Shown here piece after piece: positions 3,149 through 64,000 of a DNA stretch of 64,000 nt (its first letter is position 1; the number at the start of each line of letters is the position of its first letter). Made by a program: the position numbers and the translations under genes. The DNA comes from a virus (taxonomy: Duplodnaviria > Heunggongvirae > Uroviricota > Caudoviricetes): IMG/VR virus record IMGVR_UViG_3300025887_000009. One strand, written 5' to 3'. A model generated the notes under the pieces. That model had not been told where the DNA came from and made no database searches. It worked only from the letters and a program-made list of their open reading frames with translations.

Positions 3149-3161
3149 AAGGAGAGAAAAC

Positions 3162-4262
3162 ATGTTGGATGCACTAAAAACTCTATTTGAAAACAATGTG
3201 GTTTCTGAAGAGATCAGAACTGATATTGAAGAAGCTTGGAACGCGAAAATTAAAGAAAATCGCTTACAAGCAACAGCAGAACTTCGCGAAGAATTTGCAA
3301 AAAAGTATGAACACGACAAGAGCACAATGGTTGAGGCCATTGAATCAATGCTTGAGGAACGCCTAACTGAAGAGATGGCAGAACTTAAGGATGATCGTAA
3401 TCAACTTGCAGAAGCAAAAGCAAAGTATGCAGTAGCAATGCGTGAGAACGCAGCGCTTGTTAACAAGTTTATTACTAAGCAACTATCTGAAGAAATCAAG
3501 GACCTCCACGAGGACCAAAAATTGATGGCTCAAAATTTTGCTAAACTTGAAGAATTCATTATCGAGTCACTGGCTAAAGAAATCAATGAGTTTATGGAGG
3601 ACAAACAGGACCTAGCAGAAACTAAGGTTCGCTTAATCCGCGAGGGTAAAGCACACTTCAACAAAGTCAAAAAGGCATTTGTTGAAAGAAGCGCAACGCT
3701 TGTTTCCGAAACTGTTTCAAAATCACTTAACCGTGAAATGACACAGCTTAAGGAAGACATCGAGCTTGCACGAAAGAACGACTTCGGTCGTAAAATATTT
3801 GAAGCGTTTGCTAACGAATATACTTCTAGTTACTTAAACGAGAAGTCAGAAACTGCACAACTACTTAAGGTTATTAACACCAAGAATAAGCAGATTGCAG
3901 AAGCAAAAACATTCGCTTCAAAAGCAAAATTACTCGCTGAAAGCGCAGCGAAAGAAAAGACACTATTAGTTGAAAGTCAAAGCCGCAAGGACACTATCAA
4001 TGAACTAGTATCACCTCTTTCAAAGTCACAGCGCGAAATTATGACAGACTTACTGGAATCAGTTCAAACAGTGAAGCTTCGTGCTTCGTTTGACAGATAC
4101 TTGCCATCCGTTCTAAACGAAGGTAAGAGCACTCCGGCCAAGCAAAAGGCACAACTAAATGAAGGCACATCTATCACAGGCAATCGCGAAAACACAAATA
4201 AAACCAGTAGTACAAGCAATGAGAACGTAGTTGATTTACGTAGACTTGCTGGATTGAAATAA
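3162..4262 (+). CDS. 22: prohead scaffolding protein (gp22-like, coiled-coil)
   Basis: Strong RBS AAAGGAGAG. Charged, heptad-rich helical protein between the protease and MCP genes. C-terminus ...DLRRLAGLK. Confidence 0.6.
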   Translation: MLDALKTLFENNVVSEEIRTDIEEAWNAKIKENRLQATAELREEFAKKYEHDKSTMVEAIESMLEERLTEEMAELKDDRNQLAEAKAKYAVAMRENAALVNKFITKQLSEEIKDLHEDQKLMAQNFAKLEEFIIESLAKEINEFMEDKQDLAETKVRLIREGKAHFNKVKKAFVERSATLVSETVSKSLNREMTQLKEDIELARKNDFGRKIFEAFANEYTSSYLNEKSETAQLLKVINTKNKQIAEAKTFASKAKLLAESAAKEKTLLVESQSRKDTINELVSPLSKSQREIMTDLLESVQTVKLRASFDRYLPSVLNEGKSTPAKQKAQLNEGTSITGNRENTNKTSSTSNENVVDLRRLAGLK

Positions 4263-4272
4263 GGAGATCATA

Positions 4273-5451
4273 ATGTCAGAACTACTAGAAAGCCGCTGGC
4301 AGGAAACTAAGGGTGCTCTACTTGAAGGTCTACACGGAACTAAAAAATCCGTTATGGCAACAACACTTGAGAACACTCGTAATTATCTTGCAGAAACAGC
4401 AACAGCAGGCGCTACAAGCGCAGGCAACATCGCAACACTTAACCGTGTTATTCTTCCAGTCATCCGTCGTGTAATGCCGACTGTGATTGCAAACGAACTT
4501 GTTGGTGTTCAGCCAATGACAGGTCCTGTGGGTCAGATCCACACGCTACGTGTACGTTATGCGGATTCGTTTAACAGCACAGGCGGTACTGATACTACTG
4601 CTGGCGAAGAGGCACTAAGCCCATTCAAGATTGCAGAAGGTTACTCCGGTAACGCTGCTGATGATAAGGCTGCACCAACTGCGTCTCTAGAAGGCCTAGC
4701 TGGTAACCGTATGAACATCCAGATCCTAAAGCAGACTGTTGAAGCTAAAACTCGTAAGCTATCAGCACGTTGGACTTTTGAATCTGCACAAGATGCTCAG
4801 TCACAGCACGGTATCGACGTAGAAGCAGAAGTAATGGCTGCTCTTGCACAGGAAATCACAGCAGAGATTGACCGTGAAGTACTATCTTCACTTCGTTCGC
4901 TTGCAGGTGCTGCTTCTGAAACATACGACCAAGCTGCGGTATCTGGTACTGCTACATTCGTTGGTGACGAACACGCTGCTCTAGCTGTTCAAATCAACCG
5001 TGTATCAAACATCATCGCTCAGCGTACACGTCGTGGCGCAGGCAACTACGCAGTTGTTAGCCCATTTGCACTTACAATTCTACAGTCAGCAACTACTTCG
5101 GCATTTGCTCGTACTACAGAAGGTTCGTTCGAAGCACCAACAAATACAAAGTTTGCTGGTACACTTAACAACGCAATGCGCGTATATGTTGACACATATG
5201 CATCAGACGCTACAGGTGTTCTTATTGGTTATAAAGGATCAACAGAAAGCGACGCGCCAGCGTTCTACTGCCCATATATCCCACTAATGAGCTCCGGTAC
5301 AGTGCTTGATCCGTCAACATTCGAACCAGTTGTGTCATTTATGACACGTTATGGTTATGTTGAGTTGAACAACACAGCATCATCGCTTGGTAACGCTGCT
5401 GACTATCTTGGTCAGGTTGCTATTACTAACGGTAACGTATCATTCAGCTAA
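4273..5451 (+). CDS. 23: major capsid protein (T4 gp23 family)
   Basis: RBS AAGGAGA. 'VMPTVIANELVGVQPMTGPVGQIHTLRVRY' aligns to T4 gp23 'AIPNLIAFDICGVQPMNSPTGQVFALRAVY'. Followed by a strong terminator. Confidence 0.9.
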   Translation: MSELLESRWQETKGALLEGLHGTKKSVMATTLENTRNYLAETATAGATSAGNIATLNRVILPVIRRVMPTVIANELVGVQPMTGPVGQIHTLRVRYADSFNSTGGTDTTAGEEALSPFKIAEGYSGNAADDKAAPTASLEGLAGNRMNIQILKQTVEAKTRKLSARWTFESAQDAQSQHGIDVEAEVMAALAQEITAEIDREVLSSLRSLAGAASETYDQAAVSGTATFVGDEHAALAVQINRVSNIIAQRTRRGAGNYAVVSPFALTILQSATTSAFARTTEGSFEAPTNTKFAGTLNNAMRVYVDTYASDATGVLIGYKGSTESDAPAFYCPYIPLMSSGTVLDPSTFEPVVSFMTRYGYVELNNTASSLGNAADYLGQVAITNGNVSFS

Positions 5452-5473
5452 TAAGTTGAGAATACAAATACAG

Positions 5474-5500
5474 AAAAGGCTCTTCGGAGCCTTTTCTTTT
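5474..5500 (+). terminator. rho-independent terminator after major capsid gene
   Basis: AAAAGGCTC-TTCG-GAGCCTTTT hairpin (UUCG loop) plus a T-tract. Confidence 0.7.
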
Positions 5501-5562
5501 GACTTGACTTTCGCCTAACAGTCTGCTATTCTATAATAGCAAAAATATTTAGGAACAATATT

Positions 5563-5841
5563 ATGATTACGAAAATTTCAGACTGGCATCCGATTATGAC
5601 AGATATTAATCAAAAAAAACAGCACCTTCCTTTTAGACAACGAATTGAAGTAAATGCTTTTAATCGTAATATTGAAAAGATGCTTTTTAACATTAGTAAA
5701 TTAGAAGTAGAACTTCGTCAAAAAAAGAGCAAACAAGTGCAATTAAAAATTGATCAAGCGTATGAAGAAGTTAATGCTATCCTTCCTGTAATGGTTAATA
5801 AAATCTCCAGATATAGTACTCTAGCTATTCTTTCAAAGTAA
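5563..5841 (+). CDS. hypothetical protein (92 aa)
   Basis: ORF after the MCP terminator and a promoter-like region. Contains an A9 homopolymer at 5604-5612. Confidence 0.35.
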   Translation: MITKISDWHPIMTDINQKKQHLPFRQRIEVNAFNRNIEKMLFNISKLEVELRQKKSKQVQLKIDQAYEEVNAILPVMVNKISRYSTLAILSK

Positions 5842-5858
5842 ACTATCTTTCTCCTTGC

Positions 5859-5866
5859 ATAAATAC
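5859..5866 (+). promoter_or_regulatory. late-promoter-like ATAAATAC 1 nt before ATG 5868
   Basis: cATAAATACtATG. Confidence 0.35.
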
Positions 5867-5867
5867 T

Positions 5868-6314
5868 ATGTCTATTAAAAGAACCAGCCAATGTGCTGGA
5901 CTTACAGCGGTTACCCGCCCTGTAGACCTAGAACGTCAAAGGAGAAACAGAATGGGACGTCCAGTTAATAAAAGATATTTCGGTGATCCAGTTGGTGGTA
6001 CTCAGCTTAAAGTAGAAGCTGATACCGGTAACGGTGCAAGTGAAGTAGCATATATCCTTGCTCAAAAAGGAACAAACGAATTTAAAGTTACCGATGGTAC
6101 GACAGCATTAGATTGCCGTCTTGTTGATAAAGCTTTTGCAGCTATTGCAGAAGGTGAAATGGTAATTGCCGGTTCAGTTGCAGGCGGTGTCGGTCGTGCA
6201 ACAATTGCAAAACTATTCAATAGAACAGCAGTTGATTTTAACAGTGTACGTTATACTTGGGAAATCCAAGATGACTCAACTGAAACAGCACTAATCCTGA
6301 CACCAATTGAGTAA
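5868..6314 (+). CDS. hypothetical virion-associated protein
   Basis: ORF with the ATAAATACTATG motif at its start. Alternative RBS-supported start at 5952 (AAGGAGAAACAGAATG). Sits in the structural module. Confidence 0.45.
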   Translation: MSIKRTSQCAGLTAVTRPVDLERQRRNRMGRPVNKRYFGDPVGGTQLKVEADTGNGASEVAYILAQKGTNEFKVTDGTTALDCRLVDKAFAAIAEGEMVIAGSVAGGVGRATIAKLFNRTAVDFNSVRYTWEIQDDSTETALILTPIE

Positions 6315-6323
6315 GGAATAAAA

Positions 6324-7301
6324 ATGACAAAGGTCCTCAGTGTACCCAATGGTAGTTACTACGTCTACGTTCAAGATGGCGGCGTAATTCGTTTAGATAC
6401 AGGCTCGGAATTAGGTAGAGTTGAAATTAGCGGTGATCTCATCGTTGAAGGAAACACTACTACAGTTTCGTCTGAGGACCTGTCTGTCCGTGACAATGTT
6501 ATTATAATTAATAACGGAGAAACTGGATCAGGAGTAACTCTTGACACAGCTGGCATACAAGTCGATAGAGGATCATTGCACGATGCATTGTTTGTTTGGG
6601 ACGAAAATGTAACATGGACAGATCCAATTTCAGAAGGTGCTCTAACAGGGGCGTGGCATTCTAAAACAGCTAACGGAAGCCTTGTCGGTATTCGAACTAA
6701 CAGCATTACAACCGGTGGCGGCGACCTTTATTTAATTAACTCTGGTACCGGTGTTATATCTGTAATAGGTACTGCAAATTACGAAGACCAAGTAATTGAT
6801 GATGATCATATTCCTAACAAGAAATATATTGTAGACTACGTTAGTACCGCGTTTACTATTAATCTTCCTATAAGAATTGAAGACGGAACAGTTGCAAGTA
6901 AAACTTATGTAGAAGCGCAAGACTTTGAAACAACTAGTAATCCGAGTAGAATAGCAGTCGGAATCGACGAAACTGTAGTAGCAACATTTAGTGCAGAGAG
7001 CGTCGACCTGTATGGATTAAGAATAGACGGAACACATCTCCAAGTAATTGATTCAAATGAAGATTTAATTTTATCAGCAGCTGGCACAGGTCTAGTTAGA
7101 GTAGATGATATGCTTCAAATTAACTCAGTACCGGGAGTAGATGATGCAACAACCGTTCCTGCTGCACCAATTGACGGCGTTACGGTATATACAAACAGTG
7201 AAGATGTAGGCGGCACCGGTATGTTCTTTGTTAATCAAGATTCTTCACGTGGAGAATTAATTTCAAAAAACAAAGCACTTGTGTTTAGCATGGTATTTTA
7301 A
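6324..7301 (+). CDS. putative structural protein (325 aa)
   Basis: Sits in the late structural block and is Gly/Thr/Val-rich. RBS AAGGAATAAAAATG. Confidence 0.5.
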   Translation: MTKVLSVPNGSYYVYVQDGGVIRLDTGSELGRVEISGDLIVEGNTTTVSSEDLSVRDNVIIINNGETGSGVTLDTAGIQVDRGSLHDALFVWDENVTWTDPISEGALTGAWHSKTANGSLVGIRTNSITTGGGDLYLINSGTGVISVIGTANYEDQVIDDDHIPNKKYIVDYVSTAFTINLPIRIEDGTVASKTYVEAQDFETTSNPSRIAVGIDETVVATFSAESVDLYGLRIDGTHLQVIDSNEDLILSAAGTGLVRVDDMLQINSVPGVDDATTVPAAPIDGVTVYTNSEDVGGTGMFFVNQDSSRGELISKNKALVFSMVF

Positions 7302-7310
7302 GGAAAAATA

Positions 7311-7655
7311 ATGGCAATTGATTATGTAGCAATAGCAAACACAGACACCGACCTTGTAGTAGTTCCTGCAGGAAAGCAGTATGCAATTACAACAATTATG
7401 GTGTGCAACACATGGGCATTAGTGAATAACCCAGAAGACGAACTCGATGGATTAACTAACTTTGATATGCACTTTGTTAAATCAGGTGGCACAAAATCCG
7501 CAGTTAATCAAGTAATTAATCAATTGGAAATTCCTGCAGGCGAAACGTTTACTTTCGATTCAGAAAAAATTATATTAAGCGAAGGCGATAAGATTGTAGT
7601 AGTTGGAGATTCGCCAACTAACCTGTCAGCAATGGTTAGTTGGTTGGAGGTATAA
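7311..7655 (+). CDS. hypothetical structural protein (114 aa)
   Basis: ORF tightly packed (9 nt gap) in the late block. Confidence 0.45.
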   Translation: MAIDYVAIANTDTDLVVVPAGKQYAITTIMVCNTWALVNNPEDELDGLTNFDMHFVKSGGTKSAVNQVINQLEIPAGETFTFDSEKIILSEGDKIVVVGDSPTNLSAMVSWLEV

Positions 7656-8186: not shown

Positions 8187-9650
8187 ATGGCACAACTAGG
8201 ACGCATAAGTGGACCTATGCTAGATGAAGATTTGTTAAGAAACGGATCTAATTTAGCTTTTAAAAACAACGCAATAGACGCACCTGTATTGTTTATTGAC
8301 GCAGTTAATGGCCGTATAGGCGTTAACACTAGCACGCCTGCTTCTGACTTAGAAGTAATCGGCGGATTAAAATTTACAGATATTACGCTAACTGATCCGG
8401 CAGATTACGGAAACCTTACAATATCTAATGGCTCTATCTCTGTAGTCTCCGGAGATCTTACAATTAGTTCTGCAGGAACAATTACGCTTCCAGGATTGCA
8501 AACAACTGATTATTTGTTTGACGGTAATAGAATAACTGGATTACAGACAGACGCTAACATAGAGATTTTGCCAAATGCCGCAGGTGAAATTGATTTCTAC
8601 GGCAACGTAAATGTAAATGAAAATATGTACGTTGCTGGAACATTATCTCTTACAGGAGACATAGATATAAATGGTAGTGTATCAACATTAGGCGATGCTA
8701 CGTCAGATACTATTGATTTTAATTTAGAATTTCAACAAAACATATTAGTAGCAATAAACGATACTCATTCTTTAGGATCTGTATTATCCGAATGGAAAAA
8801 TTTATTTGCATTTAGATTTCAAACCACTGACATATTAATTCATGATAATATAATCGAAACAACTCTAACCAATTCTAATTTAAATTTACAAACTACTGGT
8901 AGAGTAATTTTTGAAGATGTTACTGCAACTAACAACATAATTTCGTCAGATACTCAACTTGAATTAAATTCAAGTAGTAATATAATTGATTTAGATTCAA
9001 CATCATCTGTAGTAATTTCAAAAGGAACAACAGCAGAATTTGCACCTATTAATGGTGCTATGCGATATAATATAGACAATAACTTATTCGAAGGATACAA
9101 AGGAGAAGTTATTAGATTCAGCGGAATTTATTCCGGAGATACTCAAACTAGTGTACTTGCAGATCTGACACAGGATTTCCTTTCATTAACTACAAATTCA
9201 ATAACAGTTGGCACTATTAATAATAACACAAGTATTTTTAACAGAGTTGATGTTGACGACACTATAATTAATAACAACGAAATTAGTTCAGCTGTAACAA
9301 ACGCAGATTTAGAATTTAAACCTAACGGTAGTGGAGCAGTTTTCTTTGGATCTACTTTTGGATTCTTTGAAGACTCGTGGATAAACAGCACAAATTCTGC
9401 AATTTCTATCGGTGTTACAAACGATGGCAGAGTAAAATTAGCTAGTACATCTGCTGTGTCATTTCCGGCAGGAACAACAGCAGAACGTCATCCTACTCCG
9501 GAAGAAGGTATGGCCCGGTTTAATACTGACTTAGGATATTATGAGCTTCACAACGGTGCAGATTGGTTTCCTATGGTAGGTGTTGTACCACCAGTTACTC
9601 AAGAACGATTTGAGGAAATACGGTTCCTGTGGAGCCTTGTACTTACATAA
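8187..9650 (+). CDS. tail fibre-like protein (paralog A)
   Basis: N-terminus 'MAQLGRISGPML..NG.NLAFKNN..IDAVNGRIGVNT' is shared with the ORF at 9753. Contains three copies of 'GTT.ER(H)P.P..GM.R(Y/F)NTD...E'. Low-complexity N/S/T-rich middle. Confidence 0.6.
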   Translation: MAQLGRISGPMLDEDLLRNGSNLAFKNNAIDAPVLFIDAVNGRIGVNTSTPASDLEVIGGLKFTDITLTDPADYGNLTISNGSISVVSGDLTISSAGTITLPGLQTTDYLFDGNRITGLQTDANIEILPNAAGEIDFYGNVNVNENMYVAGTLSLTGDIDINGSVSTLGDATSDTIDFNLEFQQNILVAINDTHSLGSVLSEWKNLFAFRFQTTDILIHDNIIETTLTNSNLNLQTTGRVIFEDVTATNNIISSDTQLELNSSSNIIDLDSTSSVVISKGTTAEFAPINGAMRYNIDNNLFEGYKGEVIRFSGIYSGDTQTSVLADLTQDFLSLTTNSITVGTINNNTSIFNRVDVDDTIINNNEISSAVTNADLEFKPNGSGAVFFGSTFGFFEDSWINSTNSAISIGVTNDGRVKLASTSAVSFPAGTTAERHPTPEEGMARFNTDLGYYELHNGADWFPMVGVVPPVTQERFEEIRFLWSLVLT

Positions 9651-44414: not shown

Positions 44415-44762
44415 ATGCGTAATGGATTAATCGTAGACGAAGATGGACCCAAGACTTGGTATCAAAACAATCTACTACATCGCGAAGATGGACCAGCAGT
44501 TGAATGGACAGATGGCACCAAAGCGTGGTATCAAAACAATCAGCTACATCGAACAGATGGACCAGCTGTTGAATATGCAGATGGCAAAAAGGTGTGGTAT
44601 CAAAACGGCCGACTACATCGAATTGACGGACCAGCAGTCGAACATCCAGATGGCACCAAGGTGTGGTATTTCAACGGGGAACAACTTTCATTAAACCTAT
44701 GGTTTGAACAGGTCGACGCCACCGAAGCACGAAAAACATTGATGAGGTTACAGTATGCGTAA
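44415..44762 (+). CDS. MORN-variant (YwqK-like) repeat protein, 3 repeats
   Basis: 23-aa repeats 'WYQNNxLHRxDGPAVEYADGTKx', conserved C-terminal '...TLMRLQYA', and an ATGCGTAA overlap with the next gene. Preceded by a sigma70 promoter. Confidence 0.65.
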   Translation: MRNGLIVDEDGPKTWYQNNLLHREDGPAVEWTDGTKAWYQNNQLHRTDGPAVEYADGKKVWYQNGRLHRIDGPAVEHPDGTKVWYFNGEQLSLNLWFEQVDATEARKTLMRLQYA

Positions 44763-45036
44763 TGGATTAATCGTAGACGAAGATGGAACCAAGACTTGGT
44801 ATCAAAACAATCTACTACATCGCGAAGATGGACCAGCAGTCGAACATCCAGATGGCACCAAGGTGTGGTATCAAAACAATCAGCTACATCGAACAGATGG
44901 CCCAGCTGTTGAATATGCAGATGGCGTCAACCTTTGGTTCCTCAAAGACGTCGAGCACGACTTCAACGAGTGGCTTGAGCGTGTTGACACATGTACAGAA
45001 GTAGAAAAAACAATGATACGATTGCAATATACGTAA
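44755..45036 (+). CDS. MORN-variant repeat protein, 2 repeats
   Basis: First ~85 nt nearly identical to the ORF at 44415. Ends '...TMIRLQYT'. Confidence 0.65.
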   Translation: MRNGLIVDEDGTKTWYQNNLLHREDGPAVEHPDGTKVWYQNNQLHRTDGPAVEYADGVNLWFLKDVEHDFNEWLERVDTCTEVEKTMIRLQYT

Positions 45037-45045
45037 TGGAAAATC

Positions 45046-45074
45046 TTGACAGTACACTGAAATAATGTTATAAT
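45046..45074 (+). promoter_or_regulatory. sigma70-type early promoter, perfect consensus
   Basis: TTGACA 45046-45051, 17 nt, TATAAT 45069-45074. Upstream of the primase gene. Confidence 0.6.
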
Positions 45075-45080
45075 TACAGT

Positions 45081-46064
45081 ATGAGTATTGTGTATGATAC
45101 ATTAATGACCTATCTGCCTGGCAAGAGGAAGACAACGCCGAGCGGATGGACGTCGTTTAACGCTACCTGTTGTATTCACAATGGCGAGTCTGCAGATACA
45201 CGAATGCGCGGCGGCGTTATTGGTAGTGATGAAGAAGTTAGTTATCATTGCTTTAACTGTGGCTATAAAGCAAGTCATGTTAAAGGGCGCACACTATCTC
45301 ATAATATGAGAAAACTGTTTGTTTGGTTAGGAATACCTGACGACACTATTAATAAAATTGCTTTACAACTTCTAAGAGAAAAAGAAGGCGTAGAGTCTAC
45401 AGAAAGAATAGTTCATCTACCAAGTTTTGATGAAAAGGAACTGCCTCCTGATTCTAAGCCTATTTTAGATTGGGATATCGAAAACAATCAATATATTGTT
45501 AAAGTTGCAACCTACATGAACGAACGAGGATTGTATCTTGACGACTACAACTTTCACTGGTCGCCTGATAGAATATACCGTAACAGACTTATGATACCAT
45601 TTTACTATGAGGGTAAAATTGTCGGCTGGACTGCAAGAGACGTGACAGGAAATGCAGCATCAAAATACATGTCGCACCAGCCTGTAGGATATGTGTTTAA
45701 TTTAGACGAGCAACAAAATAATCGTGTATTCTGCTTGGTGTTCGAAGGACCAATTGATGCAATATACTTTGACGGAGTTGCGATACTAGGATCAGAAATC
45801 AAAGACGAGCAAGCATTGCTAATTAATAGACTGGCTAAAATAAATGTATTAGTGCCTGACAGAGACAGCAAAGGCAAACAGATGGTTCAACAAGCAATCG
45901 ATCTAGGCTGGCTTGTTTCGTTTCCTGAGTGGGAAGAAGGCATAGATGATGCTGGCTCGGCTGTTGAAAAATACGGAAGGCTATATACGTTGCACTCGAT
46001 TATCGGCGCAATCGAGACAAGCCCACTTAAGATAAAACTAAGGATGAAGAAATGGTTTGGTTAA
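45081..46064 (+). CDS. 61: DNA primase (gp61-like; zinc ribbon + TOPRIM)
   Basis: 'CCIHNGE...CFNCGY' zinc ribbon. TOPRIM-like 'VFCLVFEGPIDAIYFDG' and 'VPDRDSKG'. A perfect sigma70 promoter lies upstream. Confidence 0.7.
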   Translation: MSIVYDTLMTYLPGKRKTTPSGWTSFNATCCIHNGESADTRMRGGVIGSDEEVSYHCFNCGYKASHVKGRTLSHNMRKLFVWLGIPDDTINKIALQLLREKEGVESTERIVHLPSFDEKELPPDSKPILDWDIENNQYIVKVATYMNERGLYLDDYNFHWSPDRIYRNRLMIPFYYEGKIVGWTARDVTGNAASKYMSHQPVGYVFNLDEQQNNRVFCLVFEGPIDAIYFDGVAILGSEIKDEQALLINRLAKINVLVPDRDSKGKQMVQQAIDLGWLVSFPEWEEGIDDAGSAVEKYGRLYTLHSIIGAIETSPLKIKLRMKKWFG

Positions 46065-52808: not shown

Positions 52809-53035
52809 GTTTTGTTAATGCTTTCTTGTTCGAGCAGATCTAGCAGCCAGCCACCGCCTTCATAAACACTGTCGTGCCAAACAAATCCAGCATCTTCCAG
52901 CTTGTTGAGTTCTTCTTGTGAAAGTTGATCTCGCGGTGCAAGATCGCCAGGAATACCAAATGAGCCGTTGCCTTTTTCTTCAATGCGCGTCAACATCATT
53001 TCTAGTACTTCGATAAGATTTTTATCAAGTTTCAT
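52805..53035 (-). CDS. hypothetical early protein
   Basis: Packed ORF with a 4-nt overlap. Confidence 0.4.
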   Translation of the reverse strand: MKLDKNLIEVLEMMLTRIEEKGNGSFGIPGDLAPRDQLSQEELNKLEDAGFVWHDSVYEGGGWLLDLLEQESINKT

Positions 53036-53406
53036 TTCTGTTTCCGTCTCTCTTCTTTTAAGTGTTTCATAAAATTATTCATATAGCTGATAATCTTTTC
53101 TTTACCAACTGGGTTCATACTATGTACAGTATAGTGGAAATCCTTAGGAAAGTCAAGATCATTATCAAGAATATGATCACACAGCCAGCGAGCAAAGTCG
53201 TAGCCTGTCTTGTCGCCATGGCCTTGTACGTAATGCTCTTCAGCAAGATCGTGGTCGAAATGTACAACCTGCGGAATGCCGTAACGAGTAACATAGAAAA
53301 TAGCATCATCCATATTGCGAGCAATGATCAGTAGTTCGTCCTTTTCATACGAAACCTTTGCTTGGTCTAGTGTTCTAATGTCATCGAGGAAAAGATACCA
53401 TTTCAT
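53032..53406 (-). CDS. hypothetical early protein (124 aa)
   Basis: Packed ORF with His-rich motifs 'HFDHD' and 'HYTVHS'. Confidence 0.4.
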   Translation of the reverse strand: MKWYLFLDDIRTLDQAKVSYEKDELLIIARNMDDAIFYVTRYGIPQVVHFDHDLAEEHYVQGHGDKTGYDFARWLCDHILDNDLDFPKDFHYTVHSMNPVGKEKIISYMNNFMKHLKEERRKQK

Positions 53407-57095: not shown

Positions 57096-58469
57096 TTATT
57101 TAAATCGCGGTGCTTCTTTTGCTGCGCGGTCTTCCAGGTTCTTCAGTGCGCCGAGCGTAGTAAACACATCAAGTGATGTTGGTGCTTCTGCGCCGCTACC
57201 GCCGCTGTAGAAGTCTGGCATGTCAATAGTAACATCTTTCAGCGCAGGGTACATAACCCGAGCAATGTCACGTTCGATTTCTGCCATATAGATATCCTTA
57301 GCTGATTGCTTTGCACTCAATTTAGCAAGTTCAACATCTGCTTCGGCTAGACCCTTTTCGCGGATTGCCATACCTTCAAACTTTGCAGCTTGTGCAGCAG
57401 CTTCTTGGATACCGCGGTTAGCTTCGGCAATAGCAAGTTCCTTTTCCTTTTGGATCACAGCAACATCTTTCTCTTTTTGTTGCTTTACAAGTTCTTGCAA
57501 GGCTTGCTGGCGCTCTACTTCAACACGTTGCTGACCTTGGATAGTTGCAAGTTCTTTTTCCTTCTGAGCATCTTGAATAGCTTTTTGCTTATCAATTTCG
57601 CGCTCTTGCTTTGCTGCTTCTGCCTTTACACGGTTTGTGTCGATTTCCTGTTGAGCAGTAATCTTTTCACCAACCGATTGACGCTTTCGGTCAAGCAATG
57701 TTTCAAGTTGAGAATCTGCTGTAGGTTTACCAATTGTTACCTGCGTAACTTGGATACCGTATTCTGCCATAGGATTCTCAAGTCGCCGAGGTTGTCCCGA
57801 AGTCTCGTCAATGACGATCACATTTTTCATCACAAGTCGAATTTCGTTTTCAACAAGATTAGCGTTTGAGTTTGTGCTTGATACATCAGCATATCCGCTT
57901 TCTGTAACTTCAACTTGCTGTCGCTTTGTTACATATAGACCATTTGAAAGTTGATCTTCCATTTGTGCTTTGTAAGCGTTAACTCCACCTTGGATGAATT
58001 CTTCACCTGTGTACTGAGTTGCTGTAACAACTGCAACGTTGCGAGAGTTGTTAACAAGCAAAGTATCTACCAAGTTGTCAAAGCTTCGGAAATCTTGGTG
58101 CAGCTTTCGGAAGTTCTCTTCATCTACAGGCAAACGATAACGGAACGTTGCAGGAACTGTGCCTGTGTAAGTATCCGCAAAGCCGACATTAATTGCACCA
58201 AGGTTTCGAGTAAAGTTACCGTCTTCCATGGTCATATCAATTGTTGCAACACGTTTGTATTCATAGATATTAGTAAACAATGGCATCTTCAAGTGCACAC
58301 CCGGTTCCGAGTAAACAGTAGTAGAGCCCGTGAGTTTGTTTTGCACATAGTACAAATACCCTTCACTGGTAGTAAACCAAGTCGAAAGTGCCACGAATAG
58401 AACTACTACAGATGCTACTGCGTATTTTGCAAATCGTTTTACCATATTCGTAAATTCTTTATCATTCAT
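57096..58469 (-). CDS. SPFH/band-7 (flotillin-like) membrane protein
   Basis: N-terminal TM 'YAVASVVVLFVALSTWF', an SPFH-type domain, then a long Q/E/K/A-rich coiled coil with EA-rich stretches. Terminator downstream. Confidence 0.75.
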   Translation of the reverse strand: MNDKEFTNMVKRFAKYAVASVVVLFVALSTWFTTSEGYLYYVQNKLTGSTTVYSEPGVHLKMPLFTNIYEYKRVATIDMTMEDGNFTRNLGAINVGFADTYTGTVPATFRYRLPVDEENFRKLHQDFRSFDNLVDTLLVNNSRNVAVVTATQYTGEEFIQGGVNAYKAQMEDQLSNGLYVTKRQQVEVTESGYADVSSTNSNANLVENEIRLVMKNVIVIDETSGQPRRLENPMAEYGIQVTQVTIGKPTADSQLETLLDRKRQSVGEKITAQQEIDTNRVKAEAAKQEREIDKQKAIQDAQKEKELATIQGQQRVEVERQQALQELVKQQKEKDVAVIQKEKELAIAEANRGIQEAAAQAAKFEGMAIREKGLAEADVELAKLSAKQSAKDIYMAEIERDIARVMYPALKDVTIDMPDFYSGGSGAEAPTSLDVFTTLGALKNLEDRAAKEAPRFK

Positions 58470-58481
58470 TTGTTTAGTTCC

Positions 58482-58742
58482 TTATTGAGTTTTCTGAAAA
58501 CATTCCATGCCCATGTACGGTGCATGATCTGCGTTACCGATTGCAACAGTACAGAATGTATTTTCATCATTTTCTGTCTGCCATTCGTACACACGAAAAT
58601 CAAATCCGTATGCTTCGACTTTGTAAGCTGAACTCTCTTTAGACGGCCACTTTGATGTAGCCAACTGATCGAACAATCCTGCTTGAGCAGATGCTACACT
58701 GAGTGCTAGTCCTGCCACAAGTCCAAATAGTACCTTTTGCAT
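58482..58742 (-). CDS. small secreted protein (signal peptide)
   Basis: 'MQKVLFGLVAGLALSVASAQA' signal peptide with an AxA site. Confidence 0.5.
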   Translation of the reverse strand: MQKVLFGLVAGLALSVASAQAGLFDQLATSKWPSKESSAYKVEAYGFDFRVYEWQTENDENTFCTVAIGNADHAPYMGMECFQKTQ

Positions 58743-58810: not shown

Positions 58811-59083
58811 TTAAAGCAATTCACCTTCTTGGATTTCAATATGATAACTTCCTAGATCATATTCGATTTCTGCGCGGTCCTCATCGTCTATATCTGCAGA
58901 GTCAAGGTCGTCAGTGATTTTGAGATTGTATTCACTGTAGATGTTAGCTTTAACAGCATCCTGGGCCAGCTGCATTGCTTTCTCGTATGTAGTTGCAGCA
59001 ACCCATGGAGTATAAAACGTATTCCAATTCTCGCGATCGCCGCCTTCTTCGCGGTCATAGAATGCAATATAGATTTTAGTCAT
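58811..59083 (-). CDS. small acidic protein (90 aa)
   Basis: ORF in the same leftward operon. Confidence 0.4.
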   Translation of the reverse strand: MTKIYIAFYDREEGGDRENWNTFYTPWVAATTYEKAMQLAQDAVKANIYSEYNLKITDDLDSADIDDEDRAEIEYDLGSYHIEIQEGELL

Positions 59084-59096
59084 CTTGTAATCCTTT

Positions 59097-59272
59097 TAAG
59101 ATGTGCGCAAAGGCACGTTGGTTTGTGAATCAATGTAATCGCCTTTGTAGAAACGACGAGTGGTTGTAGTGCGAACTGTAGTACCATCAGGTTTTGATCG
59201 ATAGGTTATAAGTTCTTGCATGATGATGTCATCGCATGGATCTTCCATCATTGTTTTATATGGGTCAGACAT
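59097..59272 (-). CDS. small protein (58 aa; below ORF-track cut-off)
   Basis: ATG (rc) at 59272 with AAGGA 9 nt upstream. 'MSDPYKTMMEDPCDD...'. Confidence 0.3.
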
Positions 59273-59313
59273 TTTGTTTTTCCTTTTGTTTTGTGTACAT
59301 ATAGCTTTGTTGA

Positions 59314-59595
59314 TTACGCATATTGTAACCTCATTAATGTTTTTTCTACTTCGGTGTATGTGTCGACTAGTTCAAGCCACTCGTCAAATAAAAGTGGTTT
59401 GCCTTTATAAAACCAATGTCGGTCGCCATTTGTATATTCAGCTGCTGGGCCGTCAACACGATGCAGTCGGCCTTCGAACCACCAACTGTATTCGCCATTT
59501 GCATATTCAACTGCCGGTCCATCAGTTCTGTGCAGCAATCCGTCTTGATACCAATACCGGTCGCCGCTTGCAAGTGTAGCTACTCCATTACGCAT
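59314..59595 (-). CDS. MORN-variant repeat protein (2 repeats)
   Basis: Last gene of the array. 'MRNGVATLASGDRYWYQDGLLHRTDGPAVEYANG...TLMRLQYA'. Confidence 0.65.
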   Translation of the reverse strand: MRNGVATLASGDRYWYQDGLLHRTDGPAVEYANGEYSWWFEGRLHRVDGPAAEYTNGDRHWFYKGKPLLFDEWLELVDTYTEVEKTLMRLQYA

Positions 59596-60142
59596 ATTGT
59601 AACCTCATTAATGTTTTTTCTACTTCTGTGTAATTGGCGTGTTCGAGCCAATCAATGAAGTTGTACTCGACGCCTCTGAAGTACCAAAGCTTAGAACCAC
59701 TTACGCGGTCAACTGCCGGACCGTCGGTTCGGTGTAATTCTCCGTTTTGATACCAAGCCCGATCGCCATTTGCGTATTCAGTTGCTGGTCCAGCTGTTCT
59801 GTGTCGTTGATTGTTTTGATGCCACTCCTTGGTGCCACTTGCGTATTCAACTGCTGGTCCGTCAATTCGATGTAGTTCTCCGTTTTGATACCACATCTTA
59901 GTGCCATTTGCACGTTCAGCAGCTGGGCCATCAGTTCTGTGTCGTTGCCCGTTTTGATACCACTCCTTATCACCATCTGCAAATTCGATTGCTGGTCCGT
60001 CAATTCTATGTAGTAAGCCGTGTTGATACCACTCCTTGTTGCCATCTGGGTATTCAACTGCTGGCCCATCGTCGCGATGTAGTAGACCGTTTTGATACCA
60101 AAACCGGTCGCCGGATTTGTTTGTGATCATTCTATTACGCAT
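59588..60142 (-). CDS. MORN-variant repeat protein (6 repeats)
   Basis: 23-aa repeats. 8-nt ATGCGTAA overlaps on both sides. Confidence 0.65.
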   Translation of the reverse strand: MRNRMITNKSGDRFWYQNGLLHRDDGPAVEYPDGNKEWYQHGLLHRIDGPAIEFADGDKEWYQNGQRHRTDGPAAERANGTKMWYQNGELHRIDGPAVEYASGTKEWHQNNQRHRTAGPATEYANGDRAWYQNGELHRTDGPAVDRVSGSKLWYFRGVEYNFIDWLEHANYTEVEKTLMRLQYA

Positions 60143-60551
60143 ACTGCAACCTCAACATTGTTTTTTGTACTTCGTTGAAAGCGACCTCTTCAAGCCAGTC
60201 ATTAAAAAAAAGTGGTTCATTTTTAAGGAACCAACGCCGGTTGCCATTTGCGTATTCAATAGCTGGTCCGGTGGTTCTGTGTAGTAGATCATTTTGATAC
60301 CAATACCGGTCGCCCGCAGCGAATTCAACTGCTGGTCCATCTGTTCTGTGTCGCTGGCCGTGTTGATGCCACTCTTTGCCGCCACTTGCATATTCAGCTG
60401 CTGGACCATTAGTGCGGTGTAGTCGGCCTTTAAAATACCAATGCTTGTCGCCGTTGTGCCATTCAACTGCTGGTCCATCTGTTCTGTGTCGTCGGTCGTT
60501 TTGGTACCAAATCTTGGTGCCATTTTTGTCTACGATCAATCCATTACGCAT
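60135..60551 (-). CDS. MORN-variant repeat protein (4 repeats)
   Basis: Same repeat family and C-terminal 'TMLRLQYA'. Confidence 0.65.
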   Translation of the reverse strand: MRNGLIVDKNGTKIWYQNDRRHRTDGPAVEWHNGDKHWYFKGRLHRTNGPAAEYASGGKEWHQHGQRHRTDGPAVEFAAGDRYWYQNDLLHRTTGPAIEYANGNRRWFLKNEPLFFNDWLEEVAFNEVQKTMLRLQYA

Positions 60552-61098
60552 ACTGCAACCTCAACATTGTTTTTTGTACTTCTGTGTAATTGACGTGTTC
60601 AAGCCAGTCATTTAAAAAAAACGGTTCACTTTTAAGGAACCAACGCTGATTGCCATTTGCGTATTCAATAGCTGGTCCATCTGTTCGGTGTAGTTGATTG
60701 TTTTGATACCAATACCGGTCGCCGCTTGCGCGTTCAATCGCTGGGCCATCTGTTCTGTGTCGTCCGTTGTGTTGATACCAATACCGGCCGCCGCTTGCGC
60801 GTTCAATCGCTGGGCCATCTGTTCGATGTAGTCGGCCTTCGAAATACCACTCCTTGTCGCTGTTGTACCATTCAATCGCTGGGCCATCTGTTCGATGTAG
60901 TCGGCCTTCGAAATACCACTGCTTGGTGCCATCGTTCCGTTCAATCGCTGGTCCATTTGTTCTGTGTCGTTGCCCGTGTTGATACCACTCCTTGCGGCCA
61001 TTTGCATATTCGACTGCTGGTCCTTGGTCTCGATGTAGTAGATCATCTTGATACCACACCTTAGCACCTTGAATGTCTACGATCAATCCATTACGCAT
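60544..61098 (-). CDS. MORN-variant repeat protein (6 repeats)
   Basis: Same repeat family. Confidence 0.65.
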   Translation of the reverse strand: MRNGLIVDIQGAKVWYQDDLLHRDQGPAVEYANGRKEWYQHGQRHRTNGPAIERNDGTKQWYFEGRLHRTDGPAIEWYNSDKEWYFEGRLHRTDGPAIERASGGRYWYQHNGRHRTDGPAIERASGDRYWYQNNQLHRTDGPAIEYANGNQRWFLKSEPFFLNDWLEHVNYTEVQKTMLRLQYA

Positions 61099-61645
61099 AC
61101 TGCAACCTCATCATTGTTTTTTCTACTTCGGTGATGTTAACAAGTTCAATCCAGTCGCCAAAGGAACACCTAACGCCTTCGAAGTACCACTTTTTGGTCC
61201 CACTTGAGCGCTCAATAGCTGGGCCATCTGTTCGGTGTAGTTCTCCGTCTTGATACCACACCTTTTTGCCAGTTGCATATTCAATCGCTGGGCCATCAAT
61301 TCGATGTAGTCGGTTGTGTTGATACCACTCCTTGGTGCCACTTGAGCGCTCGATTGCCGGGCCATCTGTTCGATGTAGTTCTCCGTCTTGATACCACACC
61401 TTTTTGCCAGTTGCATATTCAACTGCTGGTCCGTCAATTCGATGTAGTTCTCCGTGTTGATACCACTCCTTGGTGCCATCTGCGAATTCAACTGCTGGTC
61501 CGTCAATTCGATGTAGTTCTCCGTTTTGATACCACTCCTTGTGGACATCTGCATATTCAACAGCTGGACCATCCGTTCGATGTAGTTGGCCGTTTTGATA
61601 CCAAGTCTTGGTTCCATCTCCTTCTATGATCAATCCATTACGCAT
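61091..61645 (-). CDS. MORN-variant repeat protein (6 repeats)
   Basis: Same repeat family. Confidence 0.65.
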   Translation of the reverse strand: MRNGLIIEGDGTKTWYQNGQLHRTDGPAVEYADVHKEWYQNGELHRIDGPAVEFADGTKEWYQHGELHRIDGPAVEYATGKKVWYQDGELHRTDGPAIERSSGTKEWYQHNRLHRIDGPAIEYATGKKVWYQDGELHRTDGPAIERSSGTKKWYFEGVRCSFGDWIELVNITEVEKTMMRLQYA

Positions 61646-61985
61646 ATTGTAACCTCATTAACGTTTTTTGTGCTTCGGTATAATCGGTGTGTTCAAGCCA
61701 TTGGTCGAAGCTGTATATATCGCCTTTGATGAACCACAACTTGGTGCTGCTTGAATGTTCAACTGCTGGACCATCTATTCTGTGTCGTTGCCCGTGTTGA
61801 TACCACTCCTTGGTGCCATCGCTCCATTCAGCTGCTGGTCCATCTTCGCGATGTAGTAGATTGTTTTGATACCACATCTTGCGGCCATTTGGATATTCAA
61901 CTGCTGGCCCGTCAACACGATGTAGTTCTCCGTTTTGATACCAAGACTTAGTGCCATTTTCGGTTATGGTCAATCCATTACGCAT
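61638..61985 (-). CDS. MORN-variant repeat protein (3 repeats)
   Basis: Same repeat family. The first ~60 nt are identical to the next gene. Confidence 0.65.
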   Translation of the reverse strand: MRNGLTITENGTKSWYQNGELHRVDGPAVEYPNGRKMWYQNNLLHREDGPAAEWSDGTKEWYQHGQRHRIDGPAVEHSSSTKLWFIKGDIYSFDQWLEHTDYTEAQKTLMRLQYA

Positions 61986-62325
61986 ATTGTAACCTCATTA
62001 ACGTTTTTTGTGCTTCGGTATAATCGGTGTGTTCAAGCCATTTGTCGAAGCTGTACCTGATGCCTTTGATGTACCAATACCGTTCGCCATCTGTATATTC
62101 AACTGCTGGGCCATCTGTTCGATGTAGCTGATTGTTTTGATACCAAAAATGATTGCCATTTGGATATTCAATAGCTGGTCCGTCAATTCGATGTAGTTCT
62201 CCGTTTTGATACCACTCCTTATCGCCATCTGCAAATTCGATTGCTGGTCCATCGGTTTGATGCAGTAGATTGTTTTGATACCAAGACTTAGTGCCATTTT
62301 CGGTTATGATCAATCCATTACGCAT
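61978..62325 (-). CDS. MORN-variant repeat protein (3 repeats), first of array
   Basis: RBS AGGAAGAAATATG on the minus strand. Same repeat family. Confidence 0.65.
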   Translation of the reverse strand: MRNGLIITENGTKSWYQNNLLHQTDGPAIEFADGDKEWYQNGELHRIDGPAIEYPNGNHFWYQNNQLHRTDGPAVEYTDGERYWYIKGIRYSFDKWLEHTDYTEAQKTLMRLQYA

Positions 62326-62352
62326 ATTTCTTCCTGATATTCCCGGGTTTGC

Positions 62353-62724
62353 TTATAGCAATATTTCTGGCCAAATTGTTACAGAAGCAACCACTAGTAC
62401 AAGTGCTACAAGCACAAGCGCTACAACACTGGATGTATTGGATTGTGTAATGGTTACTAACTTAGTTGGATCTGGTTCAGCTTTTGAACGCTTGCCACGA
62501 TACGCAACTGATATAGTACGATGATATGTATTGACTGTAACGTTCTTTACTGAACAGTTATTCCCACTAAACACTCGATCGATATATTCCCCCGCTGGTT
62601 CGTATACAGTTTTGTGAACAGGGTTCCACGAATGTCGATTGTCAGAAACAACAACCCACCCAGCATCATCCTCGTCATAATAAATCGGGATCACCGCTAC
62701 CTTATCTCTCACAGTAATATCCAT
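62353..62724 (-). CDS. tail-anchored membrane protein (123 aa)
   Basis: Start at internal Met 'MDITVRDK' with AAAGGA 8 nt upstream. C-terminal TM 'VVALVLVALVLVVASVTIW'. A sigma70-like promoter lies upstream on the minus strand. Confidence 0.5.
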   Translation of the reverse strand: MDITVRDKVAVIPIYYDEDDAGWVVVSDNRHSWNPVHKTVYEPAGEYIDRVFSGNNCSVKNVTVNTYHRTISVAYRGKRSKAEPDPTKLVTITQSNTSSVVALVLVALVLVVASVTIWPEILL

Positions 62725-62755
62725 AGTAGTTCCTTTATACTCTAATTGCTGTACG

Positions 62756-62784
62756 ACTATAACACGGAAAGCGCAACCTGTCAA
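62756..62784 (-). promoter_or_regulatory. sigma70-type promoter on minus strand (TTGACA-N17-TATAGT)
   Basis: rc of 62779-62784 gives TTGACA. rc of 62756-62761 gives TATAGT. Drives the membrane protein and MORN array operon. Confidence 0.5.
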
Positions 62785-62928
62785 GAGAAAGCAGCGTAGC
62801 TGCCTCAGCAAAAATTTTTTAGACGTTTAATGTACATGCTTTTTCTACACCCACTCACAGAAGCTGCGCTTCTCGTCGTAGGGTTCCGAAACGCAGTATA
62901 GCTCAGATTCTTTTCTTAGAAACTCGCT

Positions 62929-62947
62929 ATTCTCTAAGTTAGAGAAT
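62929..62947. other. 9-bp inverted repeat hairpin overlapping the stop of the ORF at 62939..63193
   Basis: ATTCTCTAA-g-TTAGAGAAT. T-run follows on the plus strand. Confidence 0.35.
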
Positions 62948-63193
62948 TTTGTTCTCTTCTATGTTAACAGTATAGTAGTCGGAGTACCGTGAACCCAGAA
63001 GTTCGAATAGTACAAGAGTAGCATCGCTTGCGCGTGTGTGCTCTAAGACTAGTTTGTAATCATCTTCACGGTGCACGGTTCTAGGTGAGCCACTGTGGGC
63101 TATGGTGTTAACAAGGTTACCGACTATTCGCTTGCTGAGTGCAGGCATGGTTTTAAGAGCTGGGGTGAAGTTGATGTTGTATATGGTTCTCAC
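62939..63193 (-). CDS. hypothetical protein (84 aa)
   Basis: ORF at the edge of the non-coding repeat region. A hairpin overlaps its stop. Confidence 0.35.
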   Translation of the reverse strand: MRTIYNINFTPALKTMPALSKRIVGNLVNTIAHSGSPRTVHREDDYKLVLEHTRASDATLVLFELLGSRYSDYYTVNIEENKIL

Positions 63194-63534
63194 AGTGTAT
63201 ATATCATCTTACACTGTATGCTATGGTACTCGTCTGGTGCAGTCTGCACCATTCGCAGCTGGCTTCGTTCGCTTCGCGACTCGAGCTGAGTCAGCTTCGC
63301 TTTTGTGTAGTGCCCGAAATGGGTCCTGCGTGTTCTTAAAAATTTCCCGCGCAGTTTTTTATGGTGAAGTACTTATAGATGGTAGGTGGTGATTCTGCAT
63401 CACCCAGTTTTAAAAATGTTGATTTAAATTTGAAATTAAATAATTTGAAATCCGTTTAGCGTTTAGTGTTGTAAAGCAAATAATTAATTTATATACCCCG
63501 ACCCCCCTCTTTTTTTATTTTTTATTTTTTTATT

Positions 63535-63570
63535 TTTGTTTGTTACTTTGTTTGTTACTTTGTTTGTTAC
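63535..63570. repeat. 3 x 12-bp tandem repeat TTTGTTTGTTAC in AT-rich non-coding region
   Basis: Perfect triplication, preceded by T7/T6/T7/T5 runs. Confidence 0.8.
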
Positions 63571-63604
63571 TATACATATACTGTACACTACTGCGCTACG
63601 CATT

Positions 63605-63646
63605 GCAAGCACTAATATAATTTATTTTAATGCATTTAGTGCTTGC
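63605..63646. repeat. 11-bp perfect inverted repeat GCAAGCACTAA / TTAGTGCTTGC with 20-nt AT-rich loop
   Basis: Arms at 63605-63615 and 63636-63646. Confidence 0.75.
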
Positions 63647-63648
63647 GC

Positions 63649-64000
63649 TAGTGCTGCGCAACTGCTATAACATATGTATAGCAACGCAACAAACAGCAAA
63701 GTAGCACAGTATGTACACAGCAACGCATTACGCAAACTACACAACGCAAAAGCGCGCAAACATTGCACAAGCAGCATTGTACGCAAAGCTTATTAAAAAG
63801 CTTAACAAGTACAACGCAAAGCACAACACAAACTACGTGCTGCAAGCAACAACACAAGCTAGCGTATGCAATACGCAAGTGTACGTAACACTTGCAATTA
63901 CTTGCAAAAAGTATAAGCAAGCTGTTAAGTTGTTTAACAAAACAGTAAGTGCGTTTTACAAGCAACTTAACGACTCGCACGATTCTAACAGCTTTGTTGT
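63649..64000. other. strand-biased A+C-rich (T-poor) low-complexity non-coding region with recurring ACGCAA/GCAAGC words
   Basis: No plausible ORF. Only a Cys-rich antisense artefact ORF is present. Composition is unlike the rest of the genome. Confidence 0.5.

Follow-up and report, generated by a model that had tools for sequence, protein, structure and literature searches.

We describe a tandem array of seven small genes on the minus strand, at positions 59314-62325, of a 64,000-nucleotide stretch of tailed-phage DNA (IMG/VR record IMGVR_UViG_3300025887_000009; the whole stretch is hereafter called the window). The array is best explained overall as a recombination-driven, lineage-specific multigene family of small soluble proteins, built of MORN-like β-hairpin repeats, which belongs to a large (jumbo-type) myophage and has a role as a set of binding scaffolds, and we would give this reading as a whole a probability of about one half. 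The anatomy and evolution of the array as laid out below can be stated with considerable assurance; that the functional class is one of variable binding scaffolds for host macromolecules, serving take-over or counter-defence, is a more tentative proposal made by analogy. That families of repeat-protein paralogs expand in large viruses is well established; what is distinctive here is the unit fused from stop to start, the variation of length on two levels and the direct evidence of natural gain or loss.

Parsing of open reading frames (ORFs) and repeats recovered all seven minus-strand ORFs with two to six repeats each where a first-pass annotation of the window had placed them, and we number them in the order of transcription. 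Gene 1 (61978-62325; 348 nt, 115 aa, 3 repeats) has the sequence AGGAAG 5 nt 5' of its ATG and is a recombinant as described below, gene 2 (61638-61985; 348 nt, 115 aa, 3 repeats) overlaps the stop of gene 1 at 61978-61985, and gene 3 (61091-61645; 555 nt, 184 aa, 6 repeats), with its 8-nt overlap at 61638-61645, has a duplication of 138 bp in its interior. These are followed by gene 4 (60544-61098; 555 nt, 184 aa, 6 repeats; 8-nt overlap at 61091-61098), by gene 5 (60135-60551; 417 nt, 138 aa, 4 repeats; 8-nt overlap at 60544-60551), which encodes the sole basic paralog with an isoelectric point (pI) of 9.2, by gene 6 (59588-60142; 555 nt, 184 aa, 6 repeats; 8-nt overlap at 60135-60142) and by gene 7 (59314-59595; 282 nt, 93 aa, 2 repeats; 8-nt overlap at 59588-59595), the last of the array. 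The proposed length steps of 69 bp hold for genes 1-6 but not for gene 7, which is 66 nt shorter than genes 1 and 2 because of one extra codon. The periodicity is far beyond what chance would produce, Tandem Repeats Finder giving period-69 arrays with scores of 170-429 and gene-length periods of 340-409 with scores of about 1000-1100.

Each of the six internal junctions (6/6) is formed by ATGCGTAA, an 8-nt stop/start overlap which in the upstream gene is read as TAT-GCG-TAA (Y-A-stop) and in the downstream gene as ATG-CGT-AAT (M-R-N), so that the reading frame steps by one per junction (0, 2, 1). A GAGG ribosome-binding site is found 7 nt 5' of each junction ATG, within the M-R-L codons of the upstream gene's MRLQYA, and the conserved 3' end of each gene hence also carries the ribosome-binding site and the start codon of the next. 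The junction DNA had been called near-identical between units, which is true of ~30 nt before and ~12 nt after each ATG but not of the last 60 nt, where identity between genes is 70-100%. The sequence features expected for the translational coupling that the first-pass annotation had supposed, i.e. the stop/start overlap and an internal Shine-Dalgarno site, are in place, and the array is probably translated by termination-reinitiation. A programmed +1 frameshift joining successive genes was considered and rejected, there being TAA and TGA codons in the next gene's frame 15-21 nt 5' of the ATG and no slippery site. ORFs of 99-164 aa in other frames of the two strands were likewise rejected as by-products of a stop-poor repeat, the WYQNG frame alone being conserved in homologues.

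The 23-aa repeat, the conserved C-terminal segment and the 8-nt gene overlap that had been reported are all borne out by the same parsing. The consensus of the repeat is WYQNGxLHRxDGPAxExxxGxK, with GPA motifs 23 residues apart in all seven genes, and the proteins begin with a 13-aa N-terminal half repeat (MRNGLI..xGxK), continue with 2-6 full repeats and end in a tail of 33-34 aa (WYxKG...F..WLE....TE..KT.MRLQYA). An AlphaFold2 model of the gene 3 protein, based on 54 homologues (predicted local distance difference test, pLDDT, 97.3; predicted template modelling score, pTM, 0.87), consists of a regular array of short β-hairpins with two helices, 161-167 and 172-182, C-terminal to them. Judged from this model, each gene encodes a self-capped single-layer β-sheet, in which the repeats are preceded by an N-terminal half repeat and followed by another half and by two short helices at the C-terminus. 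A Foldseek search of the PDB with the model gave as top matches MORN1 from T. brucei, P. falciparum and T. gondii, junctophilins, MORN4 and radial-spoke MORN proteins (E 2.5e-8 to 1e-4), and model and structural matches thus agree on the MORN-like fold that had been suggested, the ~23-residue β-hairpin units and the elongated single-layer sheet typical of it both being predicted. The array proteins are hydrophilic (grand average of hydropathy, GRAVY, -0.7 to -1.2) and neither a signal peptide nor a hydrophobic segment was found in them. Since the pI of the paralogs spans 4.7 to 9.2, the idea that they are DNA mimics was rejected.

With canonical MORN proteins the array proteins share the 23-residue β-hairpin repeat, the elongated single-layer sheet and a similar spacing of aromatic, glycine and histidine residues, but they differ in being phage-encoded, very small and composed of repeats only with a two-helix C-terminal cap, in their consensus W-Y-Q-N-G-x-L-H-R-x-D-G-P-A-x-E, and in lacking a match to the family by sequence. 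Indeed the canonical MORN hidden Markov model (HMM; PF02493) did not match any of the seven at E<=1, and PDB sequences searched with a profile of the 54 homologues likewise gave nothing at E<=1. Furthermore, the label of YwqK-like or MORN_2 proteins given in the first-pass annotation has to be abandoned. An HMM search had been suggested there as a check, with failure of MORN_2 as the outcome speaking against the label, and when this was run with Pfam, MORN_2 (PF07661; gathering score 29.6) reached 10.7 bits (E 0.73) and 13.2 bits (E 0.11) in 2/7 proteins and gave no match at E<=1 in the remaining 5/7. In NCBIfam no YwqK-family model matched, the only hits being unrelated models far below threshold (PRK11443 lipoprotein, 14-19 bits vs a cut-off of 124).

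This bears directly on the notion that the genes form a YwqK-type (MORN_2) immunity or antitoxin repertoire against polymorphic toxins or toxin-based abortive infection. The notion draws on the shared 22-23-aa periodicity and W/Y-Y-x-N-G element, on a few distant homologues with MORN_2 scores slightly under the threshold (22.8-25 bits), and on YwqK of B. subtilis being the antitoxin of the LXG toxin YwqJ (PMC8321402, PMC6562991). However, the HMM scores of the array proteins are far too low, and the array is a viral tandem set without a toxin partner rather than a toxin-immunity pair: no toxin domain was found in the genes neighbouring the array, which apart from one SPFH and one cREC_REC protein encode ORFans, nor were toxin partners found near homologues, whose settings are phage, prophage or giant-virus-like. 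The immunity reasoning is therefore without basis here, because there is neither a MORN_2/YwqK match nor an adjacent toxin-like gene, and we consider this explanation highly improbable.

The sole Pfam family at threshold is DUF6745 (PF20530; gathering 27 bits), which is found in 3/7 array genes and in 1/2 related genes on the plus strand, with 31.2 bits for gene 1, 43.8 for gene 3, 36.6 for gene 6 and 36.2 for the plus-strand gene at 44415-44762, and the same label is carried by many homologues. A repeat element is common to both, but the array proteins match only ~50 of the 206 profile positions, and repeatedly the same ones (about 56-106), so that the common part is an embedded repeat element and not the whole domain. 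No paper mentioning DUF6745 was found in the literature. Comparison of the seven proteins with PHROGs gave nothing meaningful, and a PADLOC scan, the library of which covers defence systems and not counter-defence, gave no match.

The evolution of the array is best seen from contigs carrying its junctions. The exact junction pattern had no match in IMG/VR, and in Joint Genome Institute (JGI) metagenomes it retrieved contigs L028 and L029, two others (L026, L027) being chance matches without family genes. In L029 the flanks are 99.7-100% identical to the window, and two extra genes (117 and 115 aa; 678 bp) are found between genes 1 and 2. Gene 2 of the window is 100% identical to its L029 counterpart, and gene 1 is identical to the L029 gene g1 over nt 1-282 and to one of the extra genes (xB) over nt 249-348, with diagnostic sites against g1 at 283, 333 and 340. 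Gene 1 is therefore a chimera of g1 and xB, which places an unequal crossover within nt 249-282, a stretch of 34 nt in which the two do not differ. The ongoing unequal crossover that had been suspected from the junctions is hereby shown directly, and the comparison of array length among related genomes that had been recommended found a near-identical strain with two genes more than the window. Genes 1 and 2 are furthermore mosaic relative to each other, with ends 97-100% and interiors 59-79% identical, and the two-repeat duplication (138 bp) in gene 3 is recent, repeats 4 and 6 being 91% and repeats 3 and 5 87% identical in DNA. A perfect 749-bp duplication of two genes is also found in L019, which carries a related family of ~70% nucleotide identity. 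We can conclude that copy number shifts by unequal homologous recombination in the conserved gene ends. The tandem paralogs and the recombinational difference in copy number between close genomes place the array among accordion-type families, as judged from short-read contigs.

Selection was assessed from the ratio of non-synonymous to synonymous substitution rates (dN/dS) among the 35 paralogous repeats of the nine family genes in the window. For the scaffold codons (W2, Y3, Q4, H9, R10, G13, P14, A15, E17, G21) dN/dS is 0.07 at a dS of 0.70, for all codons it is 0.41, and for the most variable codons (1, 5, 7, 11, 18-20, 22) it is 0.94, a value which, as these columns were picked post hoc, indicates freedom to change and not proven positive selection. 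Several synonymous codons are in use for the invariant Gly, Pro, Ala, His and Arg residues, and the start codon, Shine-Dalgarno site and stop codon are conserved in ORFs that are intact in all cases (9/9). This is strong evidence that the coding sequence is real and its scaffold residues are under purifying selection. Positions 1, 5, 7, 11, 18-20 and 22, the number of repeats and the net charge vary freely.

The first-pass annotation was unaware of any characterised arrangement of this kind, and this stands in so far as no description of the repeat or of its arrays was found in the literature on DUF6745, HREDGPA or MORN with phage or jumbo phage; comparable arrays are however frequent in large viral contigs. 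Contig L035, from a related phage, holds at least 13 consecutive genes of the same subfamily (MRNG...MRLQYA) with 6, 4, 1, 3, 1, 3, 2, 3, 5, 2, 5, 3 and at least 1 repeats and lengths of 46+23n aa, and the same order is found in L036-L038 from other samples. The 8-nt overlap is present at all junctions of L035 and is also kept in L019 and L036-L038. On the 5' side of the L035 array (8190-8502) there are a long inverted repeat with a T-run, resembling a terminator, and a promoter-like site, TTGACT-N18-TACAAT, and further upstream (2766-7514) genes for thymidine kinase, a 712-aa protein, rIIB, a Macro-domain protein and a Thg1-like protein form what looks like an early or counter-defence neighbourhood. 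Analogous arrays with the same repeat and their own lineage-specific termini are found in other large viral contigs, such as L001 with at least 6 genes (MKNGL...ILKWSS), L008 with 8 genes (MKLD.WEAISS...) and L009/L017 (IMGVR_UViG_3300005577_000027, 131 kb) with at least 18 genes (MTKVYS...DEEWIIFQIIN) in five clusters within ~40 kb, where a different phage has undergone a larger expansion of its own. In the cultured podophage Celeribacter phage P12053L (L021, 3474-4050), which is a possible experimental model, gp09 has two repeats and a stop that overlaps the next small gene (gp10) by 8 nt, and the locus is found in the early region adjoining thyX.

The repeat class is very large: clustered at 50% identity it comprises 27,458 clusters for E<=1e-3 and still 14,366 for E<=1e-10. 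Matches in BFVD at 30-50% identity come from uncultured Caudovirales, Atu_ph07, Celeribacter phage P12053L, Mimivirus R871, megaviruses and marseilleviruses, many of them named 'uncharacterized', and annotated giant-virus MORN proteins match at 12-20%. The one bacterial-genome homologue that was examined (Novosphingobium) is in a prophage, and two further homologues on long contigs are found among dense small ORFans and HNH nucleases, fitting huge phages or giant viruses. Short-read assemblies most likely under-report such arrays, because many contigs end within them, and this fits the 37-fold enrichment of MORN-type repeats in long-read as compared to assembled marine viromes (PMC9238414).

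With regard to function, we propose that the array would be transcribed early as a polycistronic unit from a host-type promoter and that successive genes would be translated by termination-reinitiation. The products would constitute a battery of binding scaffolds with differing surfaces and lengths, which would engage host macromolecules for take-over or counter-defence, and the family would grow and shrink as a genomic accordion. Expanding and contracting repeat-protein families are a hallmark of large DNA viruses and hard to study in eukaryotic giant viruses; the array is a compact bacterial-virus version of such a family, with clear units, natural gain or loss by unequal crossover, and a frozen scaffold against free surfaces. 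Accordion-type amplification of counter-defence genes is documented in phages (T-even, experimental) and in poxviruses (PMC13359090, PMC9391042, PMC13096335), and parallels are offered by the MORN, ankyrin and FNIP families of giant viruses, poxvirus K3L, T4 tifA, the SegB-driven amplification in T6 and the ~35-copy zinc-ribbon family of Bacillus phage G (PMC5753266, PMC5871332, PMC13359090, PMC9391042, PMC13096335, PMC7824862). Like the viral accordion and multigene families, the array has tandem paralogs of protein-binding repeats in an accessory region, a copy number that changes by recombination and a proposed interaction with the host. It differs from them, however, in that its very small units (93-184 aa) are joined from stop to start by a fixed 8-nt overlap, that the C-terminus, the ribosome-binding site, the start codon and the recombination substrate coincide in one conserved 30-nt element, and that the number of genes and the number of repeats both vary. 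Homologues in culturable phages, namely Celeribacter phage P12053L and Agrobacterium phage Atu_ph07, the latter with about 9 copies, provide an experimental entry point, and since the class is very large and without published characterisation, a function for one member would annotate many viral genes.

Several points weigh against this interpretation of the array as a recombining family of binding scaffolds. That the proteins are scaffolds binding host partners is argued by analogy with MORN, ankyrin and similar repeat proteins and from the genomic context, and the dN/dS of the variable columns is biased upward, a value of about 1 being as compatible with a relaxation of constraint as with diversifying selection. 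The differences in copy number were read from metagenome contigs assembled from short reads, in which repeat arrays are liable to mis-assembly, although window and L028 concur on the junction of genes 1 and 2. Furthermore, gene order is the same in all four contigs (L035-L038) of the phage that carries the array of at least 13 genes, so turnover is not rampant, and phages sharing the SPFH gene found near the array have no array-type genes within 10 kb of it, which means that this lineage can do without the array. A more far-reaching version, which we regard as rather speculative and improbable, is that the arrays would be a recombination-shuffled library of binders on a fixed MORN-like scaffold with variable surfaces and lengths, the members neutralising different host immune sensors or effectors or co-assembling heteromerically, and the 30-nt junction having evolved as a dedicated recombination cassette for the rapid addition, loss and shuffling of units in phage populations. 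If this were true, the ~27,000 mostly viral clusters would represent a module that large phages and giant viruses use generally against host defences.

The phage context that had been assigned to the window is confirmed by genes for a 1082-aa tail sheath, a large terminase, helicases and a DnaB-like helicase, and the nearest cultured relative by terminase is the Pseudomonas jumbo phage PA5oct (55% identity). No tRNAs were found in the window, and a near-identity search of the array and 24 kb of the window against 50,697 INPHARED phage records gave no match. The array is located in a block of small minus-strand ORFans away from the structural and replication modules. A sigma-70-like promoter candidate (62784-62756, minus; TTGACA, 17-nt spacer, TG-TATAGT), identified in a consensus scan as an 11/12 match to consensus only, precedes a 124-aa gene (62353-62727, minus) upstream of the array, the product of which has no family match and a hydrophobic C-terminal tail, ...VVALVLVALVLVVASVTIW, that is probably a membrane anchor; this gene is possibly the first of the array transcript. 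On the minus strand the order is promoter-like site, 124-aa gene, array, three small genes, an SPFH/Band-7 gene (57096-58469; 457 aa; Pfam Band_7 E 3e-15; PHROG 11908) and, 3' of the latter, a terminator-like hairpin (56892-56870, minus), which may mark the end of the transcription unit holding the array. One of the small genes (58482-58742, same strand as the array) encodes an 86-aa, putatively secreted protein with a signal-peptide-like N-terminus. No terminator-like site was found on the minus strand within 59314-62325, and the seven genes are probably co-transcribed early from a host-type promoter. The SPFH gene is the only gene of the region common to four related viral contigs (56-71% aa identity), and since everything around it differs among them, the region is hypervariable; synteny via this neighbour revealed no orthologous array locus in the four contigs.

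The shared strand and promoter-to-terminator interval raise the possibility that the array proteins are membrane-associated adaptors which cooperate with the membrane proteins of the operon (the 124-aa, 86-aa and SPFH/Band-7 proteins) in superinfection exclusion, the remodelling of membranes or the timing of lysis. Canonical MORN proteins are known to function at membrane junctions, and junctophilin structures are among the Foldseek matches. The array proteins themselves are however devoid of signal peptides and hydrophobic segments, the arrays of L035, L001, L008 and L009 are not beside SPFH genes, with only a weak match 7 kb off in L017, relatives of the SPFH gene occur without an array, and the plus-strand pair of paralogs is found among replication genes. 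A membrane function is for these reasons unlikely, though it deserves to be kept in mind. Self-assembling structural proteins, forming virion decorations, fibres or an intracellular scaffold by end-to-end or side-by-side association of β-sheets, would be in agreement with the dimers and higher assemblies of MORN1, of which the matched PDB entries are dimeric forms, with lengths quantised as 46+23n aa like a set of spacers, and with the plus-strand pair following a gene with a sub-threshold BppU_N match. Such a role is nevertheless still less likely, since the array is outside the structural module and transcribed in the opposite direction, since host-type promoter-like sites suggest early expression, since no structural PHROG families were matched, and since a copy number that differs between near-identical strains is unusual for structural components.

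The family in this phage is larger than the seven genes of the array, with two members on the plus strand and at least two beyond the window end, one divergent and one disrupted. The eighth paralog (44415-44762, plus; 115 aa, 3 repeats) is in the block of replication genes, after the gene with the BppU_N match, and the ninth (44755-45036, plus; 93 aa, 2 repeats) overlaps it by the same 8 nt at ATGCGTAA and is followed by a decayed junction, ATACGTAATGGA (45029-45040, plus). Similarly, sequence reading after gene 7 uncovered a relic unit (59265-59321, minus), where the junction ATGCGTAAT is retained and opens an unrelated 18-codon ORF. Relic junctions at the ends of both clusters indicate that the duplicated unit spans the distance from one start codon to the next. 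Contig L028 matches the window over 61951-64000 at 99.95% identity and reaches 6.6 kb beyond the window end; it contains the divergent member (L028 3410-3985) and the split member (L028 4651-6152, ~2.3-3.7 kb past the window end), which is apparently interrupted by a UDP-glucose 6-dehydrogenase gene (4794-5975) between a start relic MRNGLIT... at L028 4651 and a C-terminal piece ...EVEKTLMRLQYAH at L028 5988-6152.

These relics, the split member and the lack of the array in relatives of the SPFH gene might be taken as signs of a functionless, decaying repeat expansion, or the array as an assembly artefact, since repetitive regions easily mis-assemble and viral assemblies from short reads contain 37-fold too few MORN-type repeats (PMC9238414). 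Against this explanation stand nine intact ORFs of nine, a scaffold dN/dS as low as 0.07 at a dS of 0.70, the 99.95% agreement of window and L028 and the conservation of the architecture in contigs only ~70% identical in DNA and in four independent samples, and it has very little to recommend it.

A few further features were observed. After the plus-strand pair a near-consensus TTGACA-N17-TATAAT is found at ~45047-45075, 5' of a Toprim-like gene (45081-46064), and further upstream in L028 there are genes for an HD-domain protein and for a homing endonuclease of the I-HmuI/NUMOD type. The cREC_REC protein of the neighbourhood (53032-53406, minus; 124 aa; cyclic-phosphate processing receiver domain, Pfam E 2.8e-20) also matches PHROG 1479. 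Two genes 3' of the array, 58811-59083 (minus) encodes a 90-aa ORFan without family match, which has a pI of 4.05 and a net charge of -15, a charge profile that occurs in DNA-mimic anti-restriction proteins. Finally, 63400-64000 is without convincing ORFs and is possibly a regulatory or intergenic region, in which TTTGTTTGTTAC occurs three times at 63535-63571 and a 26-nt unit twice at 63819-63871, together with several terminator-like hairpins on the minus strand.

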